In this document: in pieces, positions 15,691 to 26,968 of the stretch
Layout: the number at the start of each line of letters is the position of its first letter
Position numbering within the stretch: the stretch's first letter is position 1
NCBI RefSeq assembly: GCF_011745625.1
Contig: NW_027191479.1
Span: 62,001-126,000 of the forward strand
Direction of reading: 5' to 3'
Source of the DNA: Cladosporium halotolerans
Lineage: Eukaryota
Length of the DNA: 64,000 bases
The notes under the pieces: generated by a model
The model's database searches: none
What the model was told of the DNA's origin: nothing
Seen by the model: the letters and a program-made list of their open reading frames with translations, nothing else
Translations under genes and position numbers: made by a program

Positions 15691-18600
15691 CTAGTACTCA
15701 TCGCTGTCGTACTCGTCCTCCGGTAGCAGAGCGCGGTACCTTCGGCTTGCAAGGTCCTGCTCCAGCCCGCCGTCGGTCTCCGGGTCTGCGTACTCTGTAG
15801 AGATTGTTAGCAGTGGACATCACAAACGCGAAGAGAAGTAGCAAGACTTACCCGTTCCACCAATAAAGCTCAGCGCCACCGGCAAGAAAACCAACGCGTG
15901 CAACGCCGCCCACACGACGAGCGACAGCCAGACGCGGAAGTAGTAGATTTCGAAAATCTTGCTGCGGGTGAAAGCGAGCACGAAGACGCCGAGCAGCTTC
16001 GTGACGGTGATGCCGGAGAAGACGGAAGCGCCGACGTTGACGAGCGCGGCCCAGGCGCGCGCCGTGCTGCCGCCACGAGCGAATTGGCCAGGGGCGCGCT
16101 CGAGGATCGAAGGCGAGGGAACGGTGAAGGCGCGCGCGATGTGGGCGCAGAATTCGACGGCGATGCCGACGCAGATGACGATGTTGACGAGCGAGACGGC
16201 GTTGAGGGAGACGCCGACAACGCTCATTGTGCCGACGATGTCGACGACGGTCATGAGGACGGTGAGGGTGACCGTGAAGCCTGTGGCGAAGGAGCCGAGG
16301 AGAACGGTGGTGAGGAGAAGGATGAACACCAGGGCAGCGCCGACGAGTTTCATTGACAGCTGCACGATGGTGGCGTATTGATCGAAGAAGATGTAGAACT
16401 TGCTGTACGGAAAGACTTCGATGTCGTTATCCGCAGAGATATCATCTGCGATGCGACGTGCGGAAGCATATGCGTCGATGAAGTCCTTCTGAGACTTGAG
16501 AGCTGTGTGCGCAGTGCGGAAGTGGCTGGCCGGGATTGTAAGGCGGTCTGCATCGTACACCACAGCGTCTGCGTAAGCAGCCTTGCCAGCAAGTGGGCAA
16601 TCCTCAATGCTGGTGTCATTGAGCCAGCGGCCAAGGTAGTGGATGAATTCGCTACCCTCCGGCATGCCCTCCATTGTGACGCTCCACGGAGGATTGTGGC
16701 CTTCGTAGCAGTTAGAGCTGCCGTCCACGCAGCAAGTGTCCAACTCTGGGTCCAGATACTTCAGGAAATCGTCAATCCAGCTTGCCGTGGCATCGGAGAT
16801 GTAAGAGACATCCTCGCGCTTACGCTCCTGCTCGAGAATGTTCGAGACAGAGAACTGATTGCAAGTGGAGAAGCGAGCACAAAGCTCACGCTGGTGCTTG
16901 CGCTCGGTGACGTTCAGCTCACGAGTGACGAAGTAAACAGGCGGACCAGCGTCGAAGTAGGCGTAAAGATCGTTGAAGTAGGGAATCAAGTAGCTGTCAC
17001 CAGGAATGGCAATCCTCTGGTCAAGGCCCAGTTCGACCTCGGGCAGCAGCGCAATGCCAGCTGCGAAGAAGCCGAGGAAGATTGTGATGATTCCAACGCG
17101 AGTCTTGTTGCCGAGGATGGCAGGCGCGTATTGCTTTCTAATGAATCGCGACAGCCAGCCTTCTTCGTCGACGCCGCTGAAAGGAGCTCCTCCGTAGCCA
17201 CCGGGCATACTGGACGGTGTTGCACCTGAGATTTTGGCACAAGGGAAACAGTCTGCCCGGCCAGCTTCCACGCGCTGCTGGTTCAGAGAAAGCACTGCAA
17301 CAAACATGGTAACTTGCAGCAGGGCATTGATGAAGACGGCACCAGCAGCGTAAGCAGCAAAATTGCGTACGGCAGGCATACCGACAGCCGCTCCGAGAGA
17401 AAACGCAACAGTTTCCGTCAGGGCAGAAAGCAGGATCGAGGGACCCATGCGACCCAAAGCGCGAGCAACACGCTCTTCCGATGGCTCATCGGCATGGCTG
17501 ATGTTCACTCGTTCGAACTCATGAACGATCAGGAAGATGTTGTCCACACCCACAGCCAGTACGAGGAAAGGAATAACTTCGGCAATTATGAGCGTAGCCT
17601 TCACGCCGACAGCGGCAAACAAGCCGACGCTGGCAGAGACGGACATGAGGACAATCAAAATGCCAACCACGCCGAGGAGGAACTTGCTCTGCACGAGAGC
17701 GGCAGACGGGTTTCGTAGAACGGTGCTGACGGTGACTGTCGTGCTACCGAGAGCGAGTGATGCGTAAATGAACATGACGATGTAGCTGATCACGACGATC
17801 TTAGCGTCGGTGTTGGTGTTCTTGTTGAGCTCCTGCTCCAGCGAGATCTCCGTGTTGAAGCTGAGGCGCAGACCGCGTTCCTTGGCCTCTTTTTGAACAT
17901 CCAACATGAGGCGATTCATGCTTTCCTCCCACTCCTCTGCTTTCTCCAGACCCGGGTCGCCAGGGTTGAAGCCCTTCACAACCCACGTGGTAATGAGAGC
18001 TTGCGCATCCGATACATGCTCACTGGTACGGTTGTATCCACCAAGCACACGCTCAACAGGAATAGGCTGTCCGAAATCAGGCCTGCAGTCCACAGGCTGG
18101 TCCGCGCAGTGTTGCAGATCCTCTTTCCAAGTCTTGGGATCGATGGCCGAGAAATCATCGCCCTGCGACTGGAAGTATCCAGTAATACTCTGGATCACAC
18201 AAGCGTCACCAGTAGGCTTGTAGCAGACATCTTGGAAGGTGTAGCCATGACCAAGACTCTTCTGCATGCGGACTCTTCGCTCTACATCGTACCACCAACC
18301 GATTGTGTCGTACGTCAGGACTGGGCCAGGGTGCTTGGGGTCTGTGTCATTGACAAGGAACACCTGCTCGGCGCGGAAGAAGGGACCAAAGTTCGTGTCG
18401 AAGAAGTGCTTCTCCTCGGCGGCAGCGGAATCCGGCGATACCCACAGCTTTACAGGATCCGTCTCGACTGCGAATCGCAGCCAGCCCAGGCTGAGCAAGC
18501 CGACAACAATGATGCTGGAGAAGATGGTGATAGCGGGAAACTGGGCGCACATCCGGGCCAGGCCACTGAATGCGCGATCACAGTATGTGTTCAGGATATA

Positions 18601-19587
18601 CTGCTTAGTCGGGCGTTCGGTGAAGCCAGCTTGGTGGACCATGTCGCCCTCATCCTCATCTTCGCTCGCGTTCGCATCCTGGAGCAGCTGCAGGCGCTCG
18701 TTCTTACTCTTTCGGTGCTTCGCCGCTGCGACGTGCCCAGTGACAGCAAGAATGAGCAAGGCGATTATCGCGGAGTATGCGACAATGATGCCGAAGCTCA
18801 GGCAGGGCAGTAGTCCGACATGGCACTCCTCCTTTGTTTCAAGCTCAGGTAGCTTTGGGCAGCTTCCAGGGCAATCGACACAGGCACACTTGTAGCGCTC
18901 ATCGGTGCTGTTGCAAGGCTTTGGGTCGTCCAACACGGGCTCCATGCCAGCAAAGTCATCCGGTGCCGGGAAGTTAATCTGGAACGGGCTGCCCAAGAAC
19001 GGCCTCTTGTCGCCCAGGAACTTCAACAGCTGAGCGTAGTTCTTCGCGCCGCCACCGATCAAGTCAATGGCCTTGCCGCCAGTAGCGCCAAACTTCACAT
19101 CCTTGCAGCTGTCGTAGAAACCCGTGCCATACTCCTTGCTGACCAATTGGTCAAGCTCCGTAACCAAGTATTTGTCGCCCTTCTCTTCCGTCTCGGTGAC
19201 GTTCACGAACAGAGACTGATCCGGCGAGCAGGTGAAAGTGCAGAAAAGATCGAAGAAATTCTTCTTGCAGGCAGGGCATGCGGAGATGATGTTCTGGGCG
19301 CGCTGCAGATTGCTTTGGAGCGCGTCGACCTGCTCCTCCGTACAGCAGACCTTGGTGTCCTTCCACTCATCGCCGCATACCGAGACGATCTTGTCTCTCA
19401 AATCGTTGTCCGGCGATTCGGCGAGTCCATTGTCGGGGCAGGGAAGTTCTGAGCCAAAGAGCGATTGCTTGCCACAGTGTCCGCGGATAGCGCAGCGGCC
19501 TGCTTCGTGTTTGTCGGTCGTCGGACTACCGCTCGCTGCCAAAGCCGAGCCCAGCAGCAGTGGCGCCGCCCATAATGGCGCCCTCAT
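15691..19587 (-). CDS. NCR1: Niemann-Pick C1-like sterol transporter
   Basis: Signal peptide, Cys-rich NTD (CPACKKNFFDLFCTFTCSPDQS), sterol-sensing domain EVIPFLVLAVGVDNIFLIV, GIAVEFCAHIARAF; last intron 15795-15851 gives the tail EYADPETDGGLEQDLASRRYRALLPEDEYDSDEY*. Confidence 0.95.
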
Positions 19588-20143
19588 CACACGTCGGTTG
19601 GTGCAGTAATCGCGAAGCACCCAGATGTAAAGTCCACTGTAGTTTTGCCGAAGGGGTGAAGGTGGGTGTAATGGACTGAGATGCTTGGTACAGCAAGGCG
19701 CGGAGTCAAGGCGACGGACCTCACGCGATAGCGGCAATCGCTCCCAGATGGAGCTTCCAATTCCAGGCTCTCACCATCGTCATCGGTGCTTGCCCCAGCC
19801 TCTCTCCGCACGCCGCCAGCCGAGCCGCTGCCGCCGAGCCTCAGGTACAAACGGGTGAGATGCTGGTCTGAAGAAACATGGATTATATGGCAGCACTGGC
19901 ACTTGGAATATCACATTTCCGCAGCGACTCAAGCAGAGTTCGTTGCGATTTATCGTGTGAAGCATGCCACGTACCCAGCATGAAGCTGCCTGCCAATTGG
20001 CATACACTCTTTGTCTGATGATATGGTAAGGACGAGACACTGCAATGTCAACTAATAAAAGAAGGTCATGACAACGCCCCTCCCCATTCTTCCGTACTAC
20101 TCTATCTCACAGCTTCGAGCCAAGGGAGTCACTCTTCAAATCC

Positions 20144-20788
20144 TCACAACTTCCCCGCCTGCCCTCCCTGCTCAAACCTCTTCTCCGCCTCCTCCCAGTT
20201 CACCACGCTCCAGAAAGCCTTAATGTAATCAGGCCTCTTGTTCCTGTACTTCAAGTAGTACGCATGCTCCCAGACATCGAGCCCCAGCACCGGCCAGCCC
20301 GCCGCCTCGCCCACAACCTCCTCGCCCATGAGCGGGCTATCCTGGTCCTTCGTCGTGACGACAGCCAGCTTGCCCCCGCGCAGCACAAGCCACGCCCACC
20401 CAGAACCAAACACGCTCGTCGCCTTCGCCTCGAACTCCTTCCTGAAGGCCTCCTCGGACCCGAACGTGCTCTCGATCGCAGCCCTCAGCCGACTGCCGGC
20501 CTTGAGCTCCGTGCCGACCTTCAGCCCGCGCCAGAAAAAGCTGTGGTTCGCGTGGCCGCCGCCCTGGTTGCGGACGGCGCGGCGGGCGGGTTCCGGGACG
20601 GAGGCGAGCTTGCCGACGAGATCGTCTACGGCGAGGGCGGAGAGGTCGGCGTGCGGCGCGAGGGCGGCGTTGAGGTTGTTGACGTAGGTCTGGTGGTGGC
20701 GCGAGTGGTGGATTTCCATCGTCTCGGCGTCGAAGTGGGGTTCGAGGGCGGCGTAGGAGTAGGGGAGGGGCGGGAGGGTGTAGGCCAT
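20144..20788 (-). CDS. Mn superoxide dismutase, bacterial SodA-like, 214 aa, intronless
   Basis: [70 protein letters not shown]; Mn-type GGG and QD residues. Confidence 0.95.
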   Translation of the reverse strand: [214 protein letters not shown]

Positions 20789-21316
20789 TGTTGCTTGTGT
20801 GATGGTTGTTTGGGACTTGGTGTGGCTGCGAGTGTGTGTGAGCTTTGGTGAGTGAGAGCTCGGGTTGATGATCGATTGACTACTGACCTTTTGGTTGTAG
20901 CTCTTCAATTTGTTTGTCTCACTACCGTCGATTGTGTTGTAGTGCCAGAGTGACTGCAATCGATTGAAAGAGGGGTAGGTTCCTGCGAAGTGGCGGCGCC
21001 ATCATGGTAGGACACCTGAAGCGCGCATTTGAGCAAGTTTGGCCCACCAGCGCACGAGCACGTCAGCATGGCGACAACCACACCTCTGCTGCCGAGGAGG
21101 TCGTCGAAGCACGTGGGATTGCCCTGTCATGATATGGCAATCAACTATACGGTGAAGGTAATCATTCATAGGAAGTATACACGCTAAAGGAGGTCATAAG
21201 AAAAGCCAGCCAGCCGCGGCTCACCCAAAACGCCCATAATCGTTCAAAAGAAAGCGAAATGCCATCTTCTCAGGTCTTATTCAGCACCAACCGCCCTTCG
21301 TCTTCTCCTCTCCCCT

Positions 21317-24181
21317 CTACTCCGTATCGCTCAAGCCCTCCCAGGGCAGCTCATCGCTCTCGTCCCCGCTGTACTCTTCCTGCAAGCCCTCCGGGACATC
21401 AGGAGCGCTGCGTCCGATCCTGCCAGCGACCTCAGCGGGCTCCATGCCGATGGACTGCAGCGTCTCCTCAATCTCCTGTTCGGCGTTGCTCTGCTCGGCT
21501 GCACCTGAAGTCTTCTGCTCCGCAGCAGCGCTGCCGAGGTTCGCCTTCTGGCCCTCGACGACGTCGTACAAACGGTAGACCATGTCGCTGCGCCTCTCAA
21601 CCTCGGCAGTCAGCTTAAGGATGTCCGCGTGCACACTGACGCGCCTGCGACGGCCGAAAGCCGGGTCGTGGGCGTCGTACTCGGCTTCCTTCTGCGCGAG
21701 CTGGAGTTTGAGGTGAGCGACTTCGTCTTGCAGCTGTTTGAGCACATGGGCCAGAGCGAGGTGTGGAGCCCAGTCCGGGCGGAGAGTGGCGTCTTCACCG
21801 AGCTCGCGGGTCGAGACGGGAACTGGGAGAGGGACGTCGATGTGTTTGCCGTTGGCTTCGGTGCAGATGGTGCATTCTCCGGTCTTGTGGTTGGACGAGG
21901 CGATGATCTTTGCGCCGGGCTGGGCGGAGGCGGAAGCGTGCATGGTGATGTCGGGGATGATGAAGGCGGACGTCTCGCCCTCTTCGTGCTCTTGTTCGGC
22001 ACGACGGCGACGGCGGGAAGCGGTGCTCATTACCGAGACGTCCTCATCTTCGACTTCAGCATGCTTGTTGGCAAGGTTGCCAGTATCCTCAGAGATCTGA
22101 GGCGATTGGACGCGGACAGTCTTCATGGCCTTCTGGATCTCGTTGTCCCCGTGAAGGCTCAGGCGCCCAGTAGCATCCATACGAAGGCCAGTAGTGATAT
22201 CCTTCAAGGATGACTTACGACGGACGCCAGACTGTGCAGCTTTCTGAGGTAGAGTCCGCTCACGCTCAGACTCCAAGGGCGCAGAAGAGTGCCTCTTCAG
22301 GCCGATCTTTCTCCGCGACTCCTCCAGGACCTTCCTAATGTCTCTTGCGCTGAAAGTCGCCTGGCTGAGCGAAGTCAAATCAGCGGTGTCATCCTCCTGT
22401 TGTTGTTGGCCCTGGGTAGTCGAAGGAAGAGTCATGTCGCGGATCGACTTGCGTGTCTTCGTGGCGTTCTCGAGCTCGTCTTCAGACTCAGCCTCGCTGG
22501 CGGAGTTCTCGGTAGGCGCAGACACAGCACGACGAGTGGTGCTGGACGCAGACATTCCTCGTCCATTCTTCGGCTTCGTTTGGCCACCGATGCTAGACCT
22601 TGGTCGGTCGATCTTGGAGGCAAGCGAAGATGCACGCTGGTGCCGCGAAAGCTGCGTCTTTGCTCTAGTAGTCTGGATCCTCTGGAGCTCGCGCTCAACC
22701 AGCTGAGCAATACTGTCGCGCGCCCTGTCGTCCAATTGAGAGAACGAGAAGTCCTTCGTCTGGACATCGGGCAGCTCTTGGGTCGACCCAGCCCTGCTTT
22801 GCTGAGTTGTGTCTTGCTGCAGCGAGCTGCGCTTCTTCTTCTGCTTCTTCTCTTTCATCTCAAGCGTGAGGTCCTGAAGTTCCTTCGTCGGCATCTGCAG
22901 CGTCGGATCACTCTTCTTCGCCTTCGCCACAAGAGCTTTCAACCCGCTGTTCTCCTCTCTCAAAATCGTCACAATCTCCTCCAGCTCCTCATTCTCCTCC
23001 CGCAGAGTCGTGTAGCCCTCCCGGAAAACCTCATTCTCCGCCTTGACCTCCTCAAGCTGCGCCTGAACATCCGCCCTCTCCTGCGTCACCCTCCTCACCG
23101 CGATCTCCTGAACACTCGCCTGGCGCTCGGCCTTGGCAAGACGCTCCTGGAGGGCCTTCGCCTGCGTCTGCAGCTGCGCCCGCTCCCTGCGCCACTTCTC
23201 CTTCGCGCCCTCGTCCTCGGACCCAAGCCCGCTGTCCGGGCGCCGCATGCGCTGCTCGACTTCCAGCTGCGAGCGCAGCTCCGTGATGTATGCCTCGTAG
23301 TCTTCGGCGTTGCGAGCCGATTCCGCCTGCTCGGCTTCAAGCTGTGCGATCTTCTCCAGCGCCTGCTGCAGGCCGGCGTAGACTTGCTTTGCGTCTTCGG
23401 GGACGGGGACGCCGTCCAGCGTCAGGTGGGCGGGAGCGGTGCTCCGCGAGGGCATTCTATAGGTCGCGGAGGGCGTGAAGCGCGAGCTCTTCTTCGACGA
23501 GCGAGGCATGGCTGGCGTGCCGCCGATGAGCGCGGTCATGCCGTCGATGTCCGGGATGAGGAAGGAGTCTGTCGGGTGCGAGCCGGTGTTCTTCTGTGCG
23601 TACTTGGTGCGCGCTGGATCTTTGCTCTCCTGGTTGGAGCCTTCGAGGGTGGAGCCCGAGAGGATGCGGGCGCCGTTGTTGGCTGTGGGTTGCTTGAAGC
23701 GCGTGAAGCGCGTGTTCCTCGCGGGGACTGTGACCGTGGGTTGTGTGATGTCGCCGATGGTGCTGTCGTTGTTTGCGTGTCCCTTTAGGGCGTCCGCGAG
23801 GGTCCCCTGCTTCCTGCCGCCGAAACTGGCCGAGCGCTTTACGCTCTCGTTGGCTCTGGCGGCCTCAGATGCTTTCCTGGCCGTCGCGTCTTTCCTCAGC
23901 AGACTATCGTTTTTGCGGATGCTCGCGTCGCGCGGTCTCAAGGGGGGCGTGCCGGTCATCTCGTATTGCTGGTCGCTGCCGAAGGTAAAGATCCCGTCCT
24001 CGCTGAGTTCCTCCTCTCTGGCGACGCGCTTGACGCCGCGGCCGACCTCGATGCTCATGTCGGCGCTGCCCTGCGTGTTCTCATCGAAGGTGACGGTGGA
24101 GTGAAGGGCCTCGTTGTGCGGGTCGAAGCTTGAAGCTGTGTGGTATTCGCTGCTGAAGCGGCCACTGGCAGAGAACGCCAT
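21317..24181 (-). CDS. Spindle pole body coiled-coil protein, Ppc89/Cep57-like
   Basis: Central coiled coil; C-terminal DATLRP..P..ALAHVLKQLQDEVAHLK...HDPAFGRRRR...SDMVYRLYDVVEGQK and ELPWEGL; start codon inferred. Confidence 0.75.
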   Translation of the reverse strand: MAFSASGRFSSEYHTASSFDPHNEALHSTVTFDENTQGSADMSIEVGRGVKRVAREEELSEDGIFTFGSDQQYEMTGTPPLRPRDASIRKNDSLLRKDATARKASEAARANESVKRSASFGGRKQGTLADALKGHANNDSTIGDITQPTVTVPARNTRFTRFKQPTANNGARILSGSTLEGSNQESKDPARTKYAQKNTGSHPTDSFLIPDIDGMTALIGGTPAMPRSSKKSSRFTPSATYRMPSRSTAPAHLTLDGVPVPEDAKQVYAGLQQALEKIAQLEAEQAESARNAEDYEAYITELRSQLEVEQRMRRPDSGLGSEDEGAKEKWRRERAQLQTQAKALQERLAKAERQASVQEIAVRRVTQERADVQAQLEEVKAENEVFREGYTTLREENEELEEIVTILREENSGLKALVAKAKKSDPTLQMPTKELQDLTLEMKEKKQKKKRSSLQQDTTQQSRAGSTQELPDVQTKDFSFSQLDDRARDSIAQLVERELQRIQTTRAKTQLSRHQRASSLASKIDRPRSSIGGQTKPKNGRGMSASSTTRRAVSAPTENSASEAESEDELENATKTRKSIRDMTLPSTTQGQQQQEDDTADLTSLSQATFSARDIRKVLEESRRKIGLKRHSSAPLESERERTLPQKAAQSGVRRKSSLKDITTGLRMDATGRLSLHGDNEIQKAMKTVRVQSPQISEDTGNLANKHAEVEDEDVSVMSTASRRRRRAEQEHEEGETSAFIIPDITMHASASAQPGAKIIASSNHKTGECTICTEANGKHIDVPLPVPVSTRELGEDATLRPDWAPHLALAHVLKQLQDEVAHLKLQLAQKEAEYDAHDPAFGRRRRVSVHADILKLTAEVERRSDMVYRLYDVVEGQKANLGSAAAEQKTSGAAEQSNAEQEIEETLQSIGMEPAEVAGRIGRSAPDVPEGLQEEYSGDESDELPWEGLSDTE

Positions 24182-24343
24182 CTCGGCGGCTGTTGAGTGA
24201 TATTCGCCGGTTGCAGCCAGAGTGTGTAGATGCTGCGAGCCAGTCGATATGCTGCTGTTAGTACTGTTGTGTTTGCCGGAAGAGTGCGGTCGGAGCACGA
24301 ATGGTTGTAAGTTCAGTCGGCAGCGACTTCCGTCGTTGTTGTT

Positions 24344-24361
24344 GATCGCGTCTAGTAAACA
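24344..24361. promoter_or_regulatory. MCB-like (ACGCGA on minus) plus forkhead (GTAAACA) motif upstream of the Ppc89-like gene
   Basis: gatcgcgtctagtaaacaaa about 170 bp upstream of the ATG. Confidence 0.4.
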
Positions 24362-25009
24362 AATAATAAGCCCAGCTCCGAAGTTCCGAAGCTTTGCCGA
24401 CACCACCAAACAGCTCTCCGGCTTGTCACGTTTGAGCAAGTCGATGCACGTATGAAGTACAAATACGCAACGACTAAATCTAAGAAATACAGTCTGGACA
24501 ATTGATAGAAAGTCTTATGATCGTGTCAACACCTGACTTACTACTTGTGAAACAAACACGCCGAAAACCGCATACCAGTAGATCAGACACTAAAGAACGT
24601 TCATTCAGGGCGTCCAAAAGCCCTCATACCAAGATTGATCGTAATGTAATGTAAGGCACCTCTAGAAGCTGAAGAAAAAAGAGCAGAGATAATCTCGCAG
24701 CCACATCTACCATCGTGATGCCGCAATGAACGCCAGGCCTCGATAATCAAAAAAAAATCCAACCATCGCTATGCTCCGGAGCGCGCCTCAAACAAACGCA
24801 AATCGCCAGCCAAATGCTCAAAATGTGATACCATTCCCCTCCCGTTATTCTCCCACGTCTACTGTCCCCATCGGACACCCCGTTCTCTCGATCGACATCA
24901 AATCTCAGCTCGCGAGAGCGCCCATCTACACCCATATAGCCAGCCAAATCCGATCCAAAACCCAAATCCGAATCCAAATCGTCACATCCTTATTACCGAT
25001 TTCAGCCTC

Positions 25010-26968
25010 TCAAGTCCTCGCCCTCAACATCCTCAGCCGCGCATCCTCCTCCGTCCCACTCCCACTCCTAGCCGGCGGACTGCCCACACCCGCTCCCTGC
25101 AAAGGACTCATGCTCAGCCCCGCAAACGCCACGGCGGGCGCGCTCGTCGGCGGAGGCGCGCCGCGCACATGCGCCTGCCCGGGCCTCTGCAGCTGGAAGG
25201 GCGGCGCCAGCTGCGCGCCTCCTGCTCCGCCGCCGGGCTGCGGCGAGGGCGGGCGCGACGTCGCGTCGAGGTAGCTGGGCGGGCCCTCGGTGTAGGGCGT
25301 CATGGTGCCCGAGGTGCGGAGGGCGGCGCCGTAGGAGGGCACGCGGCTGAGGTTGTTGACGTCGTAGTCGGACTGGTGGATTTGGTCTGCATGGTCGTCG
25401 TCGGAGGCGCGGCGGGAGAGCGGGGCGGAGTGGTTGGGGGATTGGCCGACGGAGGCGAAGTAGGAGCCTGGGTGGGAGTTGGGGATGGAGCGGGAGAGGG
25501 GGGAGGGGGCGTCGAGGGGGGCCGGCGAGGTGCCGCCTGAGGGGGAGTGGCGGTTGGAGAGGTTGCTTTGCTGGTATTGGAAGTTGGAGGGCCCGCGTTC
25601 TTGCAGGTCTGCGAGGCGGGAGTGGAGGATGGAGGGGAGGGCGGAGCCGTGGTTGTGCGGGCTGGAGGCGCCTGAGGGGCCGGGAGGGGAGGTGTGGCCG
25701 TCGACGACGCCGTTGAGGGAGGCGATGTTGTCGTGTGAGCCGCGGCGGGAGCCGGCGTAGATGCCTGCTGGGGTGGCGGAGCCGGAGCCCGCGCGGGTGA
25801 TGTAGCCTGCTGGGTCGATGCCGGAGAAGATCTGGTCGAGCTGGTGGCGGCCGTATTCGGGTGGTGCGGTGAGGGAGGTCTCGTTGGTGTTGATTTCGGC
25901 GTCGCTGATGCCGTTGATCGTGCCGCGGACTTCGTTGGATTCGTCCACGGGGAGGTTGGGTGATATGAAGAGCTTGACGGGCAGTCTGCAGACCAGCTGC
26001 GAGACGTGGCCTTCTGGGTTGTGAATGTTGACCATCAGCTTGAAGCGATGTGTGACGTTGATCTGGTGCGAGTCGACGTCTTGTCGACACTGGTTCAGCG
26101 ACTTCGGCAAAGGCAGCGTCGCCTGGAACCTGTACATCTCGTCCGCCATCATAGGGTTGTCGACCGTCTCGTCTTCGTACGTCACCCGCGAGTGCTCGGG
26201 GAACTCCATGTCCGTCTTCGCGACCTCCGTCTCTTCAGACTTTGACCTGTCGCCTCGTATATCCGGCACCTCGCTGGCCTGTATCCGCTTCACCACCGTC
26301 TCCATCAACCTCAGCTCCACCTTCCCCAGCCTGATCCCCTTCTTAATCGGACTCAACTCCACGTCCGCAGTAATCGACGTGCCGAACACAATCGCATCCG
26401 ACGGGATCGAAATGCTATAACTGATCTTGTTCGCCCAGATATCCGCATTGACCCTACTCCTCGTCATCTCCATGCTGTCCTGGCCCAGCGTGCGCACAAT
26501 GCGAATGTGCTCCTGCGCGACGATGTCCTTCGCATTCCAGCCCGGCCGCGACACGCTGGCGTGCAAGTGGTAGACGATGAAGGTCTCGCGCAGGCCCTCG
26601 ACGCTCTCGGGCATGGAGGGGTCGAGCTCGAACTCGAAGGGCCACTCGATGACGCCCGCCTTCACTTTGTGCGTGCTCTCGATGCCCATCTTGTGCTCCT
26701 GGTTCCAGAAGACGCGCTTGTCGACGACCTCGCCGGCGCTCATGCCGCCCATGAACCACCAGCTGATCTTGCGCTTGCCCTCGAGGCGCACCTTGGGCTT
26801 GAGGATGCTCATGGCCTCGGGCGCGGTGAAGCGCACGGTTCCCGTCAGCTTGACGGTTTGCGCCTCGTGCTCGCTGCCGTTGAAGACGATGAACTGCGAG
26901 TCCGGCAGGATCTCCAGCGTCGCTTTGGGCTTGCTGCTGCCGATGTGGGGTCGCGGTGTGTGCACCAT
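25010..26968 (-). CDS. Alpha-arrestin (CreD/Rod1-like Rsp5 adaptor)
   Basis: Arrestin N/C domains (WPFEFELDPSMPESVEG, NADIWANKISYSISIP, HNPEGHVSQLVCRLPVKLFISP); PY motifs PPEY, VPSY, PPSY. Confidence 0.9.
   Translation of the reverse strand: MVHTPRPHIGSSKPKATLEILPDSQFIVFNGSEHEAQTVKLTGTVRFTAPEAMSILKPKVRLEGKRKISWWFMGGMSAGEVVDKRVFWNQEHKMGIESTHKVKAGVIEWPFEFELDPSMPESVEGLRETFIVYHLHASVSRPGWNAKDIVAQEHIRIVRTLGQDSMEMTRSRVNADIWANKISYSISIPSDAIVFGTSITADVELSPIKKGIRLGKVELRLMETVVKRIQASEVPDIRGDRSKSEETEVAKTDMEFPEHSRVTYEDETVDNPMMADEMYRFQATLPLPKSLNQCRQDVDSHQINVTHRFKLMVNIHNPEGHVSQLVCRLPVKLFISPNLPVDESNEVRGTINGISDAEINTNETSLTAPPEYGRHQLDQIFSGIDPAGYITRAGSGSATPAGIYAGSRRGSHDNIASLNGVVDGHTSPPGPSGASSPHNHGSALPSILHSRLADLQERGPSNFQYQQSNLSNRHSPSGGTSPAPLDAPSPLSRSIPNSHPGSYFASVGQSPNHSAPLSRRASDDDHADQIHQSDYDVNNLSRVPSYGAALRTSGTMTPYTEGPPSYLDATSRPPSPQPGGGAGGAQLAPPFQLQRPGQAHVRGAPPPTSAPAVAFAGLSMSPLQGAGVGSPPARSGSGTEEDARLRMLRART

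Follow-up and report, generated by a model that had tools for sequence, protein, structure and literature searches.

The 64,000-nt stretch of Cladosporium halotolerans DNA analysed here (contig NW_027191479.1, positions 62,001 to 126,000 of the forward strand; referred to below as the window) encodes a SodA-type Mn superoxide dismutase (SOD) with a short C-terminal tail that makes it a candidate for import into peroxisomes. The coding sequence, defined by the open reading frame (ORF) and its translation, lies at 20144..20788 on the minus strand, comprises 214 amino acids plus a stop codon and has no intron in its coding part. The protein starts with [10 protein letters not shown] and ends in GGQAGKL, directly followed by the stop. 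Residues 207-214 (QGGQAGKL; 20147..20170, minus strand) form a C-terminal extension composed of a Gly-rich linker and a terminal -GKL, a candidate non-canonical peroxisomal targeting signal of type 1 (PTS1). On the same strand, the ATG is preceded by 37 nt of 5' untranslated region (UTR) belonging to a second exon (20789..20825; RNA contigs X16 record 9 and X15 record 3), by a 62-nt spliceosomal GT..AG intron that is skipped in RNA and kept in DNA contigs (20826..20887) and by a first 5'UTR exon without a usable upstream ATG, which extends at least this far (20888..20950; RNA contig X16 record 9). The same RNA contig defines a 3'UTR of at least 142 nt (20002..20143, minus strand).

The enzyme consists of an alpha-hairpin domain at the N-terminus and an alpha/beta domain at the C-terminus. 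Both halves were recognized by Pfam far above the cut-off, Sod_Fe_N (PF00081) at residues 3-89 (E 3.2e-29, 101.7 bits) and Sod_Fe_C (PF02777) at residues 100-204 (E 2.1e-39, 134.1 bits). A search against solved structures, which returned 157 distinct matching sequences, placed enterobacterial-type Mn-SODs on top, namely chain 8kb3_A with 296 bits and the E. coli chain 1d5n_A with 292 bits (E 2e-86), the latter aligning end to end with residues 2 to 206. Every chain labelled 'mitochondrial' scored at most 175 bits, and this distance supports the claim of an earlier note, made from the letters of the window, that the protein is a bacterial SodA-like Mn-type SOD. Chain 1kkc, which we take to be the MnSOD of A. 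fumigatus, scored 181 bits as against 292 for the E. coli chain. Residues H27, H82, D171 and H175 are invariant in all 35 sequences of alignment A1 and align with the E. coli chain, where they presumably correspond to the metal ligands H26, H81, D167 and H171. Equally invariant (35/35) are Y35 and Q149, taken here to be the second-sphere Tyr34 and the C-terminal-domain Gln (Q146), a Gln typical of Mn enzymes. The AlphaFold2 (AF2) model built with the same alignment has a mean predicted local distance difference test (pLDDT) score of 90.9. The catalytic residues are intact, and by its sequence the enzyme looks to be of the Mn type; excerpts of one study caution that the metal used by SODs cannot be predicted from sequence (PMC7264356).

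The comparison with SodA of E. coli and other Enterobacterales (PDB 1d5n, 8kb3) reveals the same two-domain fold family, about the same core length and 63-66% identity, together with identical metal ligands, the Mn-type Gln in the C-terminal domain and the same Met start. Unlike these bacterial enzymes, the window SOD is encoded on a fungal chromosome by a gene that has a spliced intron in its 5'UTR and a GC content at third codon positions (GC3) of 0.89, and its Cladosporium subclade is further distinguished by a one-residue insert (GEAxG) and by the extension of 5-6 residues ending in -GKL.

The integrity of the locus was assessed with contigs of four public runs placed on positions 18500-22500 of the window, two from DNA (X6, X7) and two from RNA (X15, X16). 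The DNA contigs, X6 record 11 (11.7 kb) and X7 record 13 (15.4 kb), originate from different studies, and each of them spans the whole 4 kb unbroken and carries both neighbouring genes and the SOD gene on a single contig. Contig continuity across both flanks is thereby confirmed and a chimera refuted. Relative to the window the two contigs show 95 differences and 3 gaps, identical between them; they may represent one strain and are taken here as one or more independent assemblies. An 888-nt metatranscriptome contig (X16 record 9) covers 20002-20825 and then 20888-20950, skipping 62 nt, with 19 differences and 1 gap over 825 nt. The same joint recurs in the second RNA run, in X15 record 3 (X16 side 63, X15 side 20). 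The skipped stretch starts with GT and ends with AG on the minus strand and is retained by both DNA contigs. RNA contigs with the spliced form come from close relatives of about 98% identity, and the joint in RNA together with the intron kept in DNA means that the gene is transcribed in these relatives with a spliceosomal intron. The locus is a genuine, expressed and spliced fungal gene. Gaps in RNA coverage elsewhere in 18500-22500 do not indicate silence. The gene had been described as intronless in the earlier note, which holds for the coding part and fails for the gene as a whole, given its 5'UTR intron.

The transcript also settles where translation can begin. From 20950 onward the spliced leader contains no ATG, the sole in-frame ATG farther upstream (21069) meets a stop before the splice junction, and contigs of more distant relatives part from the window exactly upstream of 20788/20789. 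With no usable upstream ATG and with the divergence of the relatives at this very point, the SOD begins at the bacterial-type Met and a presequence is impossible. A presequence of the kind found in fungal mitochondrial SOD2, which would need an in-frame upstream ATG usable in the spliced mRNA, is thus missing, as the earlier note had claimed.

The downstream neighbour, NCR1 (15820..19587, minus strand), encodes a Niemann-Pick C1-related sterol transporter with the Pfam domains NPC1_N, Sterol-sensing, Patched and NPC1_MLD. Its named Dothideomycetes relatives reach 65-78% identity, the nearest being that of Oleoguttula (78%), and Hortaea, Baudoinia, Meristemomyces and Pseudocercospora follow at about 74-75%. 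Upstream lies a gene for a Ppc89/Cep57-like spindle-pole-body protein (21317..24439, minus strand), in which Cep57_MT_bd passes the cut-off with 76 bits and the PPC89 centrosome-localisation domain, with 20.7 bits, falls short of it. The placement of the SOD gene between these two is therefore supported on both flanks by Pfam domains. The remaining ORFs of the window are ordinary fungal genes, among them MED7, SRP54, condensin Cnd3, Rrp15 and an arrestin-domain protein. About half of the sampled words of 18500..22500 were found in dust, air and urban metagenome runs (X4, X5, X10-X13), an occurrence that fits a common airborne mould and serves as a lead only.

At GC3 0.89 the SOD gene stands above the 0.68 +/- 0.09 of 13 long window ORFs. 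One of these 13, the arrestin-domain ORF at 25010..26968 (minus strand; Arrestin_N and Arrestin_C), has a GC3 of 0.87, so that a high value is not peculiar to the transferred gene. Composition as a sign of recent transfer was dropped on account of this fungal neighbour, and we attribute the value of 0.89 to fungal codon bias rather than taking it for a foreign signature.

Relatives were sought among 5.8 billion proteins, and the following statements rest on the best 120 matches listed. Nearest are 15 unnamed clusters (76-85% identity), two of which include, by exact look-up, proteins from Cladosporium fusiforme and Cladosporium allicinum. At 63-74% identity follow Hortaea, Baudoinia, Meristemomyces, Neohortaea, Teratosphaeria, Extremus, Saxophila, Elasticomyces and Polychaeton, as well as the Xylariales Anthostomella and Apiospora, and then, at 63-65%, SodA of the Enterobacterales Hafnia, Yersinia, Serratia, Acerihabitans and Sodalis. 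A further search, started from the protein of Polychaeton, a less diverged fungal member, added Zasmidium, Acrodontium and Lecanosticta and gave 72-73% identity to SodA of Morganella, Xenorhabdus, Photorhabdus, Erwinia and Hafnia. The early guess that Mycosphaerellaceae have no such gene was abandoned, as Zasmidium and Lecanosticta carry it. The xenolog thus occurs in at least 15 named fungal genera, and the named carriers are solely Dothideomycetes (Teratosphaeriaceae, Mycosphaerellaceae, Polychaeton and Cladosporium among them) and the two Xylariales. A scan of one genome per prokaryotic species yielded 80 loci, of which 39 from Enterobacterales and 6 from Neisseriales lie at 62-66% identity and the rest at 61% or below.

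For phylogenetic analysis, 200 pooled sequences were collapsed at 93% identity to 125, and three odd or fragmentary ones (P0063, P0070, P0077) were removed. Trees were calculated on 202 core columns excluding the tail, a quick tree with 122 rows and a careful one (IQ-TREE, LG+C20, ultrafast bootstrap / Shimodaira-Hasegawa-like approximate likelihood ratio test) with 78 of these rows chosen to represent every group. The careful tree unites the fungal-type sequences in a single 44-row clade (100/99), nested in a 63-row clade with Enterobacterales, Neisseriales and a Pasteurellales member (100/97) that stands apart from Bacillota, Verrucomicrobiota, Planctomycetota and another gammaproteobacterium. 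The quick tree gives the same picture of a fungal clade within proteobacterial SodA. All 14 named rows of the fungal clade are fungi; as a caveat, many of its other rows are metagenome proteins without a name, of which only L003 can be assigned, by its fungal-type intron. The window SOD falls into a Cladosporium subclade of 11 rows (100/100) on a long stem of 0.28. The grouping of the fungal clade with Neisseriales and Actinobacillus reaches only 91/88, and at this support the donor may belong to any of Enterobacterales, Neisseriales and Pasteurellales. SodA of Neisseriales (P0102; L097, L102, L105; Conchiformibius, Neisseria) begins with MAYTLPELGY and in this resembles the fungal clade ([10 protein letters not shown]); that of Enterobacterales, with MSY.LPSLPY, differs from both. 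The Neisseriales-like N-terminus and the 91/88 grouping may be taken as a hint on the donor.

A metagenome scan for synteny gave 80 loci, with L001 as the only close relative; the more distant L003 is of fungal type, and L002 and L004-L020, as far as checked, look bacterial. Synteny was thus examined on the Ppc89 side in L001. The 2-kb locus L001 encodes a SOD of the C. allicinum-like cluster, 79% identical to that of the window, and upstream of it the C-terminus of the same Ppc89-like protein (74% over 229 aa), which supports vertical inheritance of the window copy. Of the NCR1-Ppc89 neighbourhood, then, the Ppc89 side is kept in this single 2-kb locus. As judged from the trees, the gene is the product of an old bacterium-to-fungus transfer common to several Dothideomycetes orders, from which the window copy was inherited vertically. 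A proteobacterial capture, as the earlier note had put it, fits this picture in so far as the fungal clade lies within proteobacterial SodA, but the capture is not particular to this genome. Conversely, the protein does nest in a broad, vertically inherited fungal clade of at least 15 genera, a finding that the note would have counted against a transfer, and that clade is still bacterial in origin. Two Xylariales sequences deserve separate mention. That of Anthostomella pinea (P0039; Sordariomycetes) sits among Teratosphaeriaceae sequences and shares their N-terminal extension, a position that suggests fungus-to-fungus transfer or contamination. That of Apiospora arundinis (P0075) has a long branch and a different, transmembrane-like N-terminus followed by a sequon.

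The feature that sets the Cladosporium subclade apart is its C-terminus. According to alignment A1, bacterial SodA and most fungal relatives stop a few residues past the last helix (...RF.QAK), and the Cladosporium subclade adds 5-6 residues, so the tail beyond the bacterial end that the earlier note had pointed out is real. The 45 subclade sequences with a readable end give 31 distinct tails, all of which end in -KL: 29 in -GKL, one in -VKL and one in -WKL. The 5-7 residues preceding -KL are Gly- and Lys-rich and differ between tails in sequence as well as in length. A constant tip after a freely varying linker has the look of a C-terminal sorting signal. In the AF2 model the last 3 residues have a pLDDT below 50, with the helix drawn as far as residue 211. 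The pattern [STAGCN]-[RKH]-[LIVMAFY] at the C-terminus, the broad microbody pattern of PROSITE, fits 46 of 203 related SODs, namely 44 of the Cladosporium subclade, that of Polychaeton citri (-GKL) and one bacterial-like protein with -SKA, which we take to be due to chance. No other fungal or bacterial relative examined has such an end. The nearest relative of the Polychaeton protein (P0272, 79%) has no tail, and in an approximately unbiased (AU) test a single clade of Polychaeton and the Cladosporium subclade was not rejected (p 0.52), which leaves both one and two gains of -GKL possible; an independent gain in the two is accordingly not claimed.

Several reports indicate that -GKL can direct proteins to peroxisomes. 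The closest precedent is MpaH', the peroxisomal acyl-CoA hydrolase of mycophenolic acid synthesis and likewise a filamentous-ascomycete protein: GFP-MpaH' co-localises with RFP-SKL in Aspergillus, a construct without GKL does not (10.1101/524025, in part), and the finding is repeated in passages of a review (PMC10816013). MpaH' is an unrelated enzyme and shows merely that the tripeptide can work. A galactokinase of Trypanosoma cruzi (GALK-2) is listed with PTS1 GKL (PMC7082770, excerpt). For human EHHADH, a table reports that the exchange of SKL for GKL lowers the apparent PEX5 affinity from 6.4 to 1.4, still within the range of working signals (PMC6770196). In an Arabidopsis study, GKL appears, in the portion considered, among the non-canonical tripeptides that are typical of low-abundance proteins and need upstream enhancers (PMC8886021). 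By analogy with these cases, -GKL can be regarded as a workable but weak signal in filamentous ascomycetes. The description of the tail as PTS1-like is supported in part, by -KL in all 31 tails and by the function of -GKL in MpaH', and weakened by the Gly at position -3.

A counterpart to the tail exists at the other end of the protein in relatives outside the Cladosporium subclade. In many annotated proteins from Hortaea, Baudoinia, Meristemomyces and Anthostomella the N-terminus is longer by about 43 residues and starts MQLxNFT.PLGL; the features of this extension were derived from L003 and from proteins P0017, P0018, P0021, P0030, P0039 and P0050. The metagenome contig L003, whose SOD is 77% identical to fungal-type proteins, encodes the extension in an upstream exon (395-543). 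A 58-nt intron with GTAAGT..CAG (544-601) follows, beyond which (602 onward) the frame of this exon continues into the segment directly preceding the bacterial-type Met. The extension is almost uncharged, with one moderately hydrophobic stretch (Kyte-Doolittle 1.4-1.9 over 11 residues), and has at position 35 an N-x-S/T sequon, retained across four genera despite differing residues. We take it for a signal-like peptide that would lead into the secretory pathway, and the proteins that bear it may be secreted or luminal MnSODs. The 5'UTR intron of the window ends 37 nt before the ATG and that of L003 46 nt, that is at nearly the same place, and the two are probably the same intron. In the window the upstream exon has lost its coding use, and the family appears to have explored several addresses after its transfer. 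Two annotations of Hortaea werneckii (P0017, P0069) contain an additional insert of 19-21 residues after the exon-1 peptide, which other Hortaea copies do not have; as it falls at the position of the L003 intron, these gene models probably read through an unspliced intron. In L001, a leader element with GTCAGT...CTAAC...CAG, identified by eye at 1090-1200 upstream of the SOD start at 1253, resembles the 5'UTR intron of the window.

These observations can be arranged into a sequence of events. An ancestor of several Dothideomycete lineages took up sodA from a gamma- or betaproteobacterium with an Enterobacterales-, Pasteurellales- or Neisseriales-like SodA, and the transferred gene became an ordinary fungal gene, gaining a 5' intron, fungal codon usage and a fixed place beside the Ppc89-like gene. 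In the Cladosporium lineage, the upstream exon no longer encodes protein, leaving translation to start from the bacterial-type Met, and the protein gained a short Gly/Lys-rich linker ending in -GKL. SodA binds Mn and dimerises, and the window enzyme is expected to fold, bind Mn and dimerise in the cytosol. Since peroxisomes import folded oligomers, Pex5 could carry the assembled enzyme by its exposed -GKL; recognized as a weak non-canonical PTS1, the tripeptide would bring part of the SOD pool into peroxisomes, where the enzyme would remove superoxide beside catalase, and the remaining pool would stay cytosolic. A weak signal combined with probably high expression would lead to such a dual distribution. 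From its sequence, PTS1-dependent targeting to peroxisomes, or to both cytosol and peroxisomes, is plausible and somewhat favoured, and the explanation as a whole, in which an old and functional SodA-type SOD of bacterial origin is targeted in this manner, is likewise held with modest rather than firm confidence.

Bacterial origin itself is on much firmer ground. What speaks for contamination or an assembly chimera is the bacterial look of the protein and nothing beyond it, and with single DNA contigs from two other studies joining NCR1, the SOD gene and the Ppc89-like gene, and RNA contigs showing the spliced form, its probability is negligible. Had this organism alone captured an enterobacterial sodA recently, as the earlier note implied, the high likeness to Enterobacterales SodA would be explained, but the closest relatives are fungal (63-85% identity in many genera), the window SOD is nested deep in the fungal clade, and the spliced intron, the fungal-style GC3 and the synteny kept in L001 make such a capture highly improbable. 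Very unlikely as well, if slightly less so, is the absence of any transfer, in which case an ancient eukaryotic or mitochondrion-derived MnSOD paralogue would have been kept in few fungal lineages and lost elsewhere. In its favour it can be said that the tree was calculated without canonical eukaryotic SOD2, so that the exclusion of that family rests on PDB scores, and that the donor grouping leaves the source of the gene ambiguous. Such a paralogue is nevertheless hard to reconcile with an identity of up to 73% to Enterobacterales SodA, with the lower scores of mitochondrial chains compared to the E. coli chain, with the nesting of the fungal clade in a single proteobacterial subclade, to which Bacillota, Verrucomicrobiota and another gammaproteobacterium do not belong, and with the restriction of named carriers to Dothideomycetes and two Xylariales. 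A functional SOD of old bacterial origin can thus be assigned with high confidence.

The main competitor of peroxisomal targeting accepts the same old transfer and holds that the enzyme is a purely cytosolic MnSOD, whose -GKL serves stability or solubility or is too weak to have a role in targeting. Much of the evidence can be claimed by this explanation and weighs against import. The impossibility of a presequence agrees with a cytosolic enzyme, and the -VKL and -WKL variants show that the tripeptide is not strictly kept. The SKL, AKL or SRL ends that the earlier note proposed to look for in orthologues did not appear, a canonical [SAC][KRH][LM] end being present in 0 of 203 related SODs, that of the window included. 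The window linker (QGGQA), unlike that of many relatives, lacks a basic residue at positions -4 to -6, and in the AF2 model the last helix continues to residue 211, with only 3 residues clearly free thereafter. Gly at -3 makes a weak PTS1 according to the lowered PEX5 affinity of EHHADH (PMC6770196), and the high GC3 of the gene suggests high expression, unlike the low-abundance proteins to which non-canonical PTS1 tripeptides were ascribed (PMC8886021). Fungi do have cytosolic MnSODs, BbSod2 of Beauveria bassiana being one (PMC3261187, in part), and horizontally acquired Mn-SODs of a leech and a rotifer are predicted, in the section concerned, to be cytoplasmic or extracellular (PMC7730656). 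An inert tail, however, should drift, yet -KL is kept in 31/31 tails while the linker varies in sequence and length, and in Aspergillus MpaH' needs -GKL for entry into peroxisomes, for which the tripeptide also suffices (10.1101/524025). A purely cytosolic enzyme is considered possible but less likely than one with a peroxisomal share.

Among known fungal enzymes, the window SOD shares with cytosolic MnSODs of the BbSod2 type the lack of a mitochondrial presequence and would give a copper-independent superoxide defence outside mitochondria. The BbSod2-type enzymes are presumably paralogues of the eukaryotic mitochondrial type, unlike the bacterial-type window SOD. For BbSod2-type enzymes no PTS1-like end is reported in the pertinent part of PMC3261187. 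Fe-SODs occur in the glycosomes of trypanosomatids (PMC7082770, section 3.10), that is Fe/Mn-family enzymes in a peroxisome-derived organelle, as proposed here; these are iron enzymes of protists unrelated to this transfer, and that section states no targeting signal for them. The Histoplasma SOD G217B_8545 was peroxisome-enriched by proximity labelling during macrophage infection and not enriched in culture, and Table S5 of that study lists no PTS1 or PTS2 and gives no SOD type (PMC13343957). Prokaryote-derived Mn-SODs, predicted to be non-mitochondrial, have been put forward for the leech Helobdella and the rotifer Adineta (PMC7730656, in part). Like the window SOD they would represent a putative transfer into a eukaryote, but with other recipients, in separate events and with no peroxisomal signal reported.

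The literature search found no description of a SodA-type xenolog in Dothideomycetes or of a PTS1-bearing MnSOD in fungi. Excerpts of a review of Hortaea oxidative-stress genes (PMC5867864) and of a review of fungal SOD and catalase evolution (PMC7712995) make no mention of a SodA xenolog. In a large catalogue of horizontal gene transfer, 'superoxide dismutase activity' is enriched among transferred genes (PMC11708051, in part); a portion of its supplement 3 holds two SOD rows, one Streptomyces-like (41%) and one Microbulbifer Fe-SOD, neither of this SodA family, which does not imply absence from the catalogue.

Superoxide does not cross membranes, and each compartment therefore needs its own dismutase. 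Superoxide handling in fungal peroxisomes is poorly defined, and Cladosporium is a ubiquitous, airborne and stress-tolerant mould in which the conserved PTS1-like end on a bacterial-type MnSOD makes the question directly and cheaply testable. Together with the sister lineages that carry a signal-like N-terminus, this SOD family illustrates how a bacterial enzyme, once transferred, can be adapted to eukaryotic sorting. It is tempting, though tentative, to go one step further: one SodA, acquired once by a Capnodiales-type Dothideomycetes ancestor, might have been sent to new addresses by two inventions, namely an exon-encoded signal-like peptide followed by a conserved N-glycosylation sequon in Teratosphaeriaceae and others, giving a secreted or luminal enzyme, and the -GKL tail in Cladosporium and Polychaeton, giving a peroxisomal one. 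If true, no PTS1-targeted MnSOD would have been described in fungi before, and the family would offer a clear example from nature of a xenolog retargeted through exon gain and tail gain; the retargeting would fall in Cladosporium, a genus noted for its tolerance of radiation and oxidative stress.

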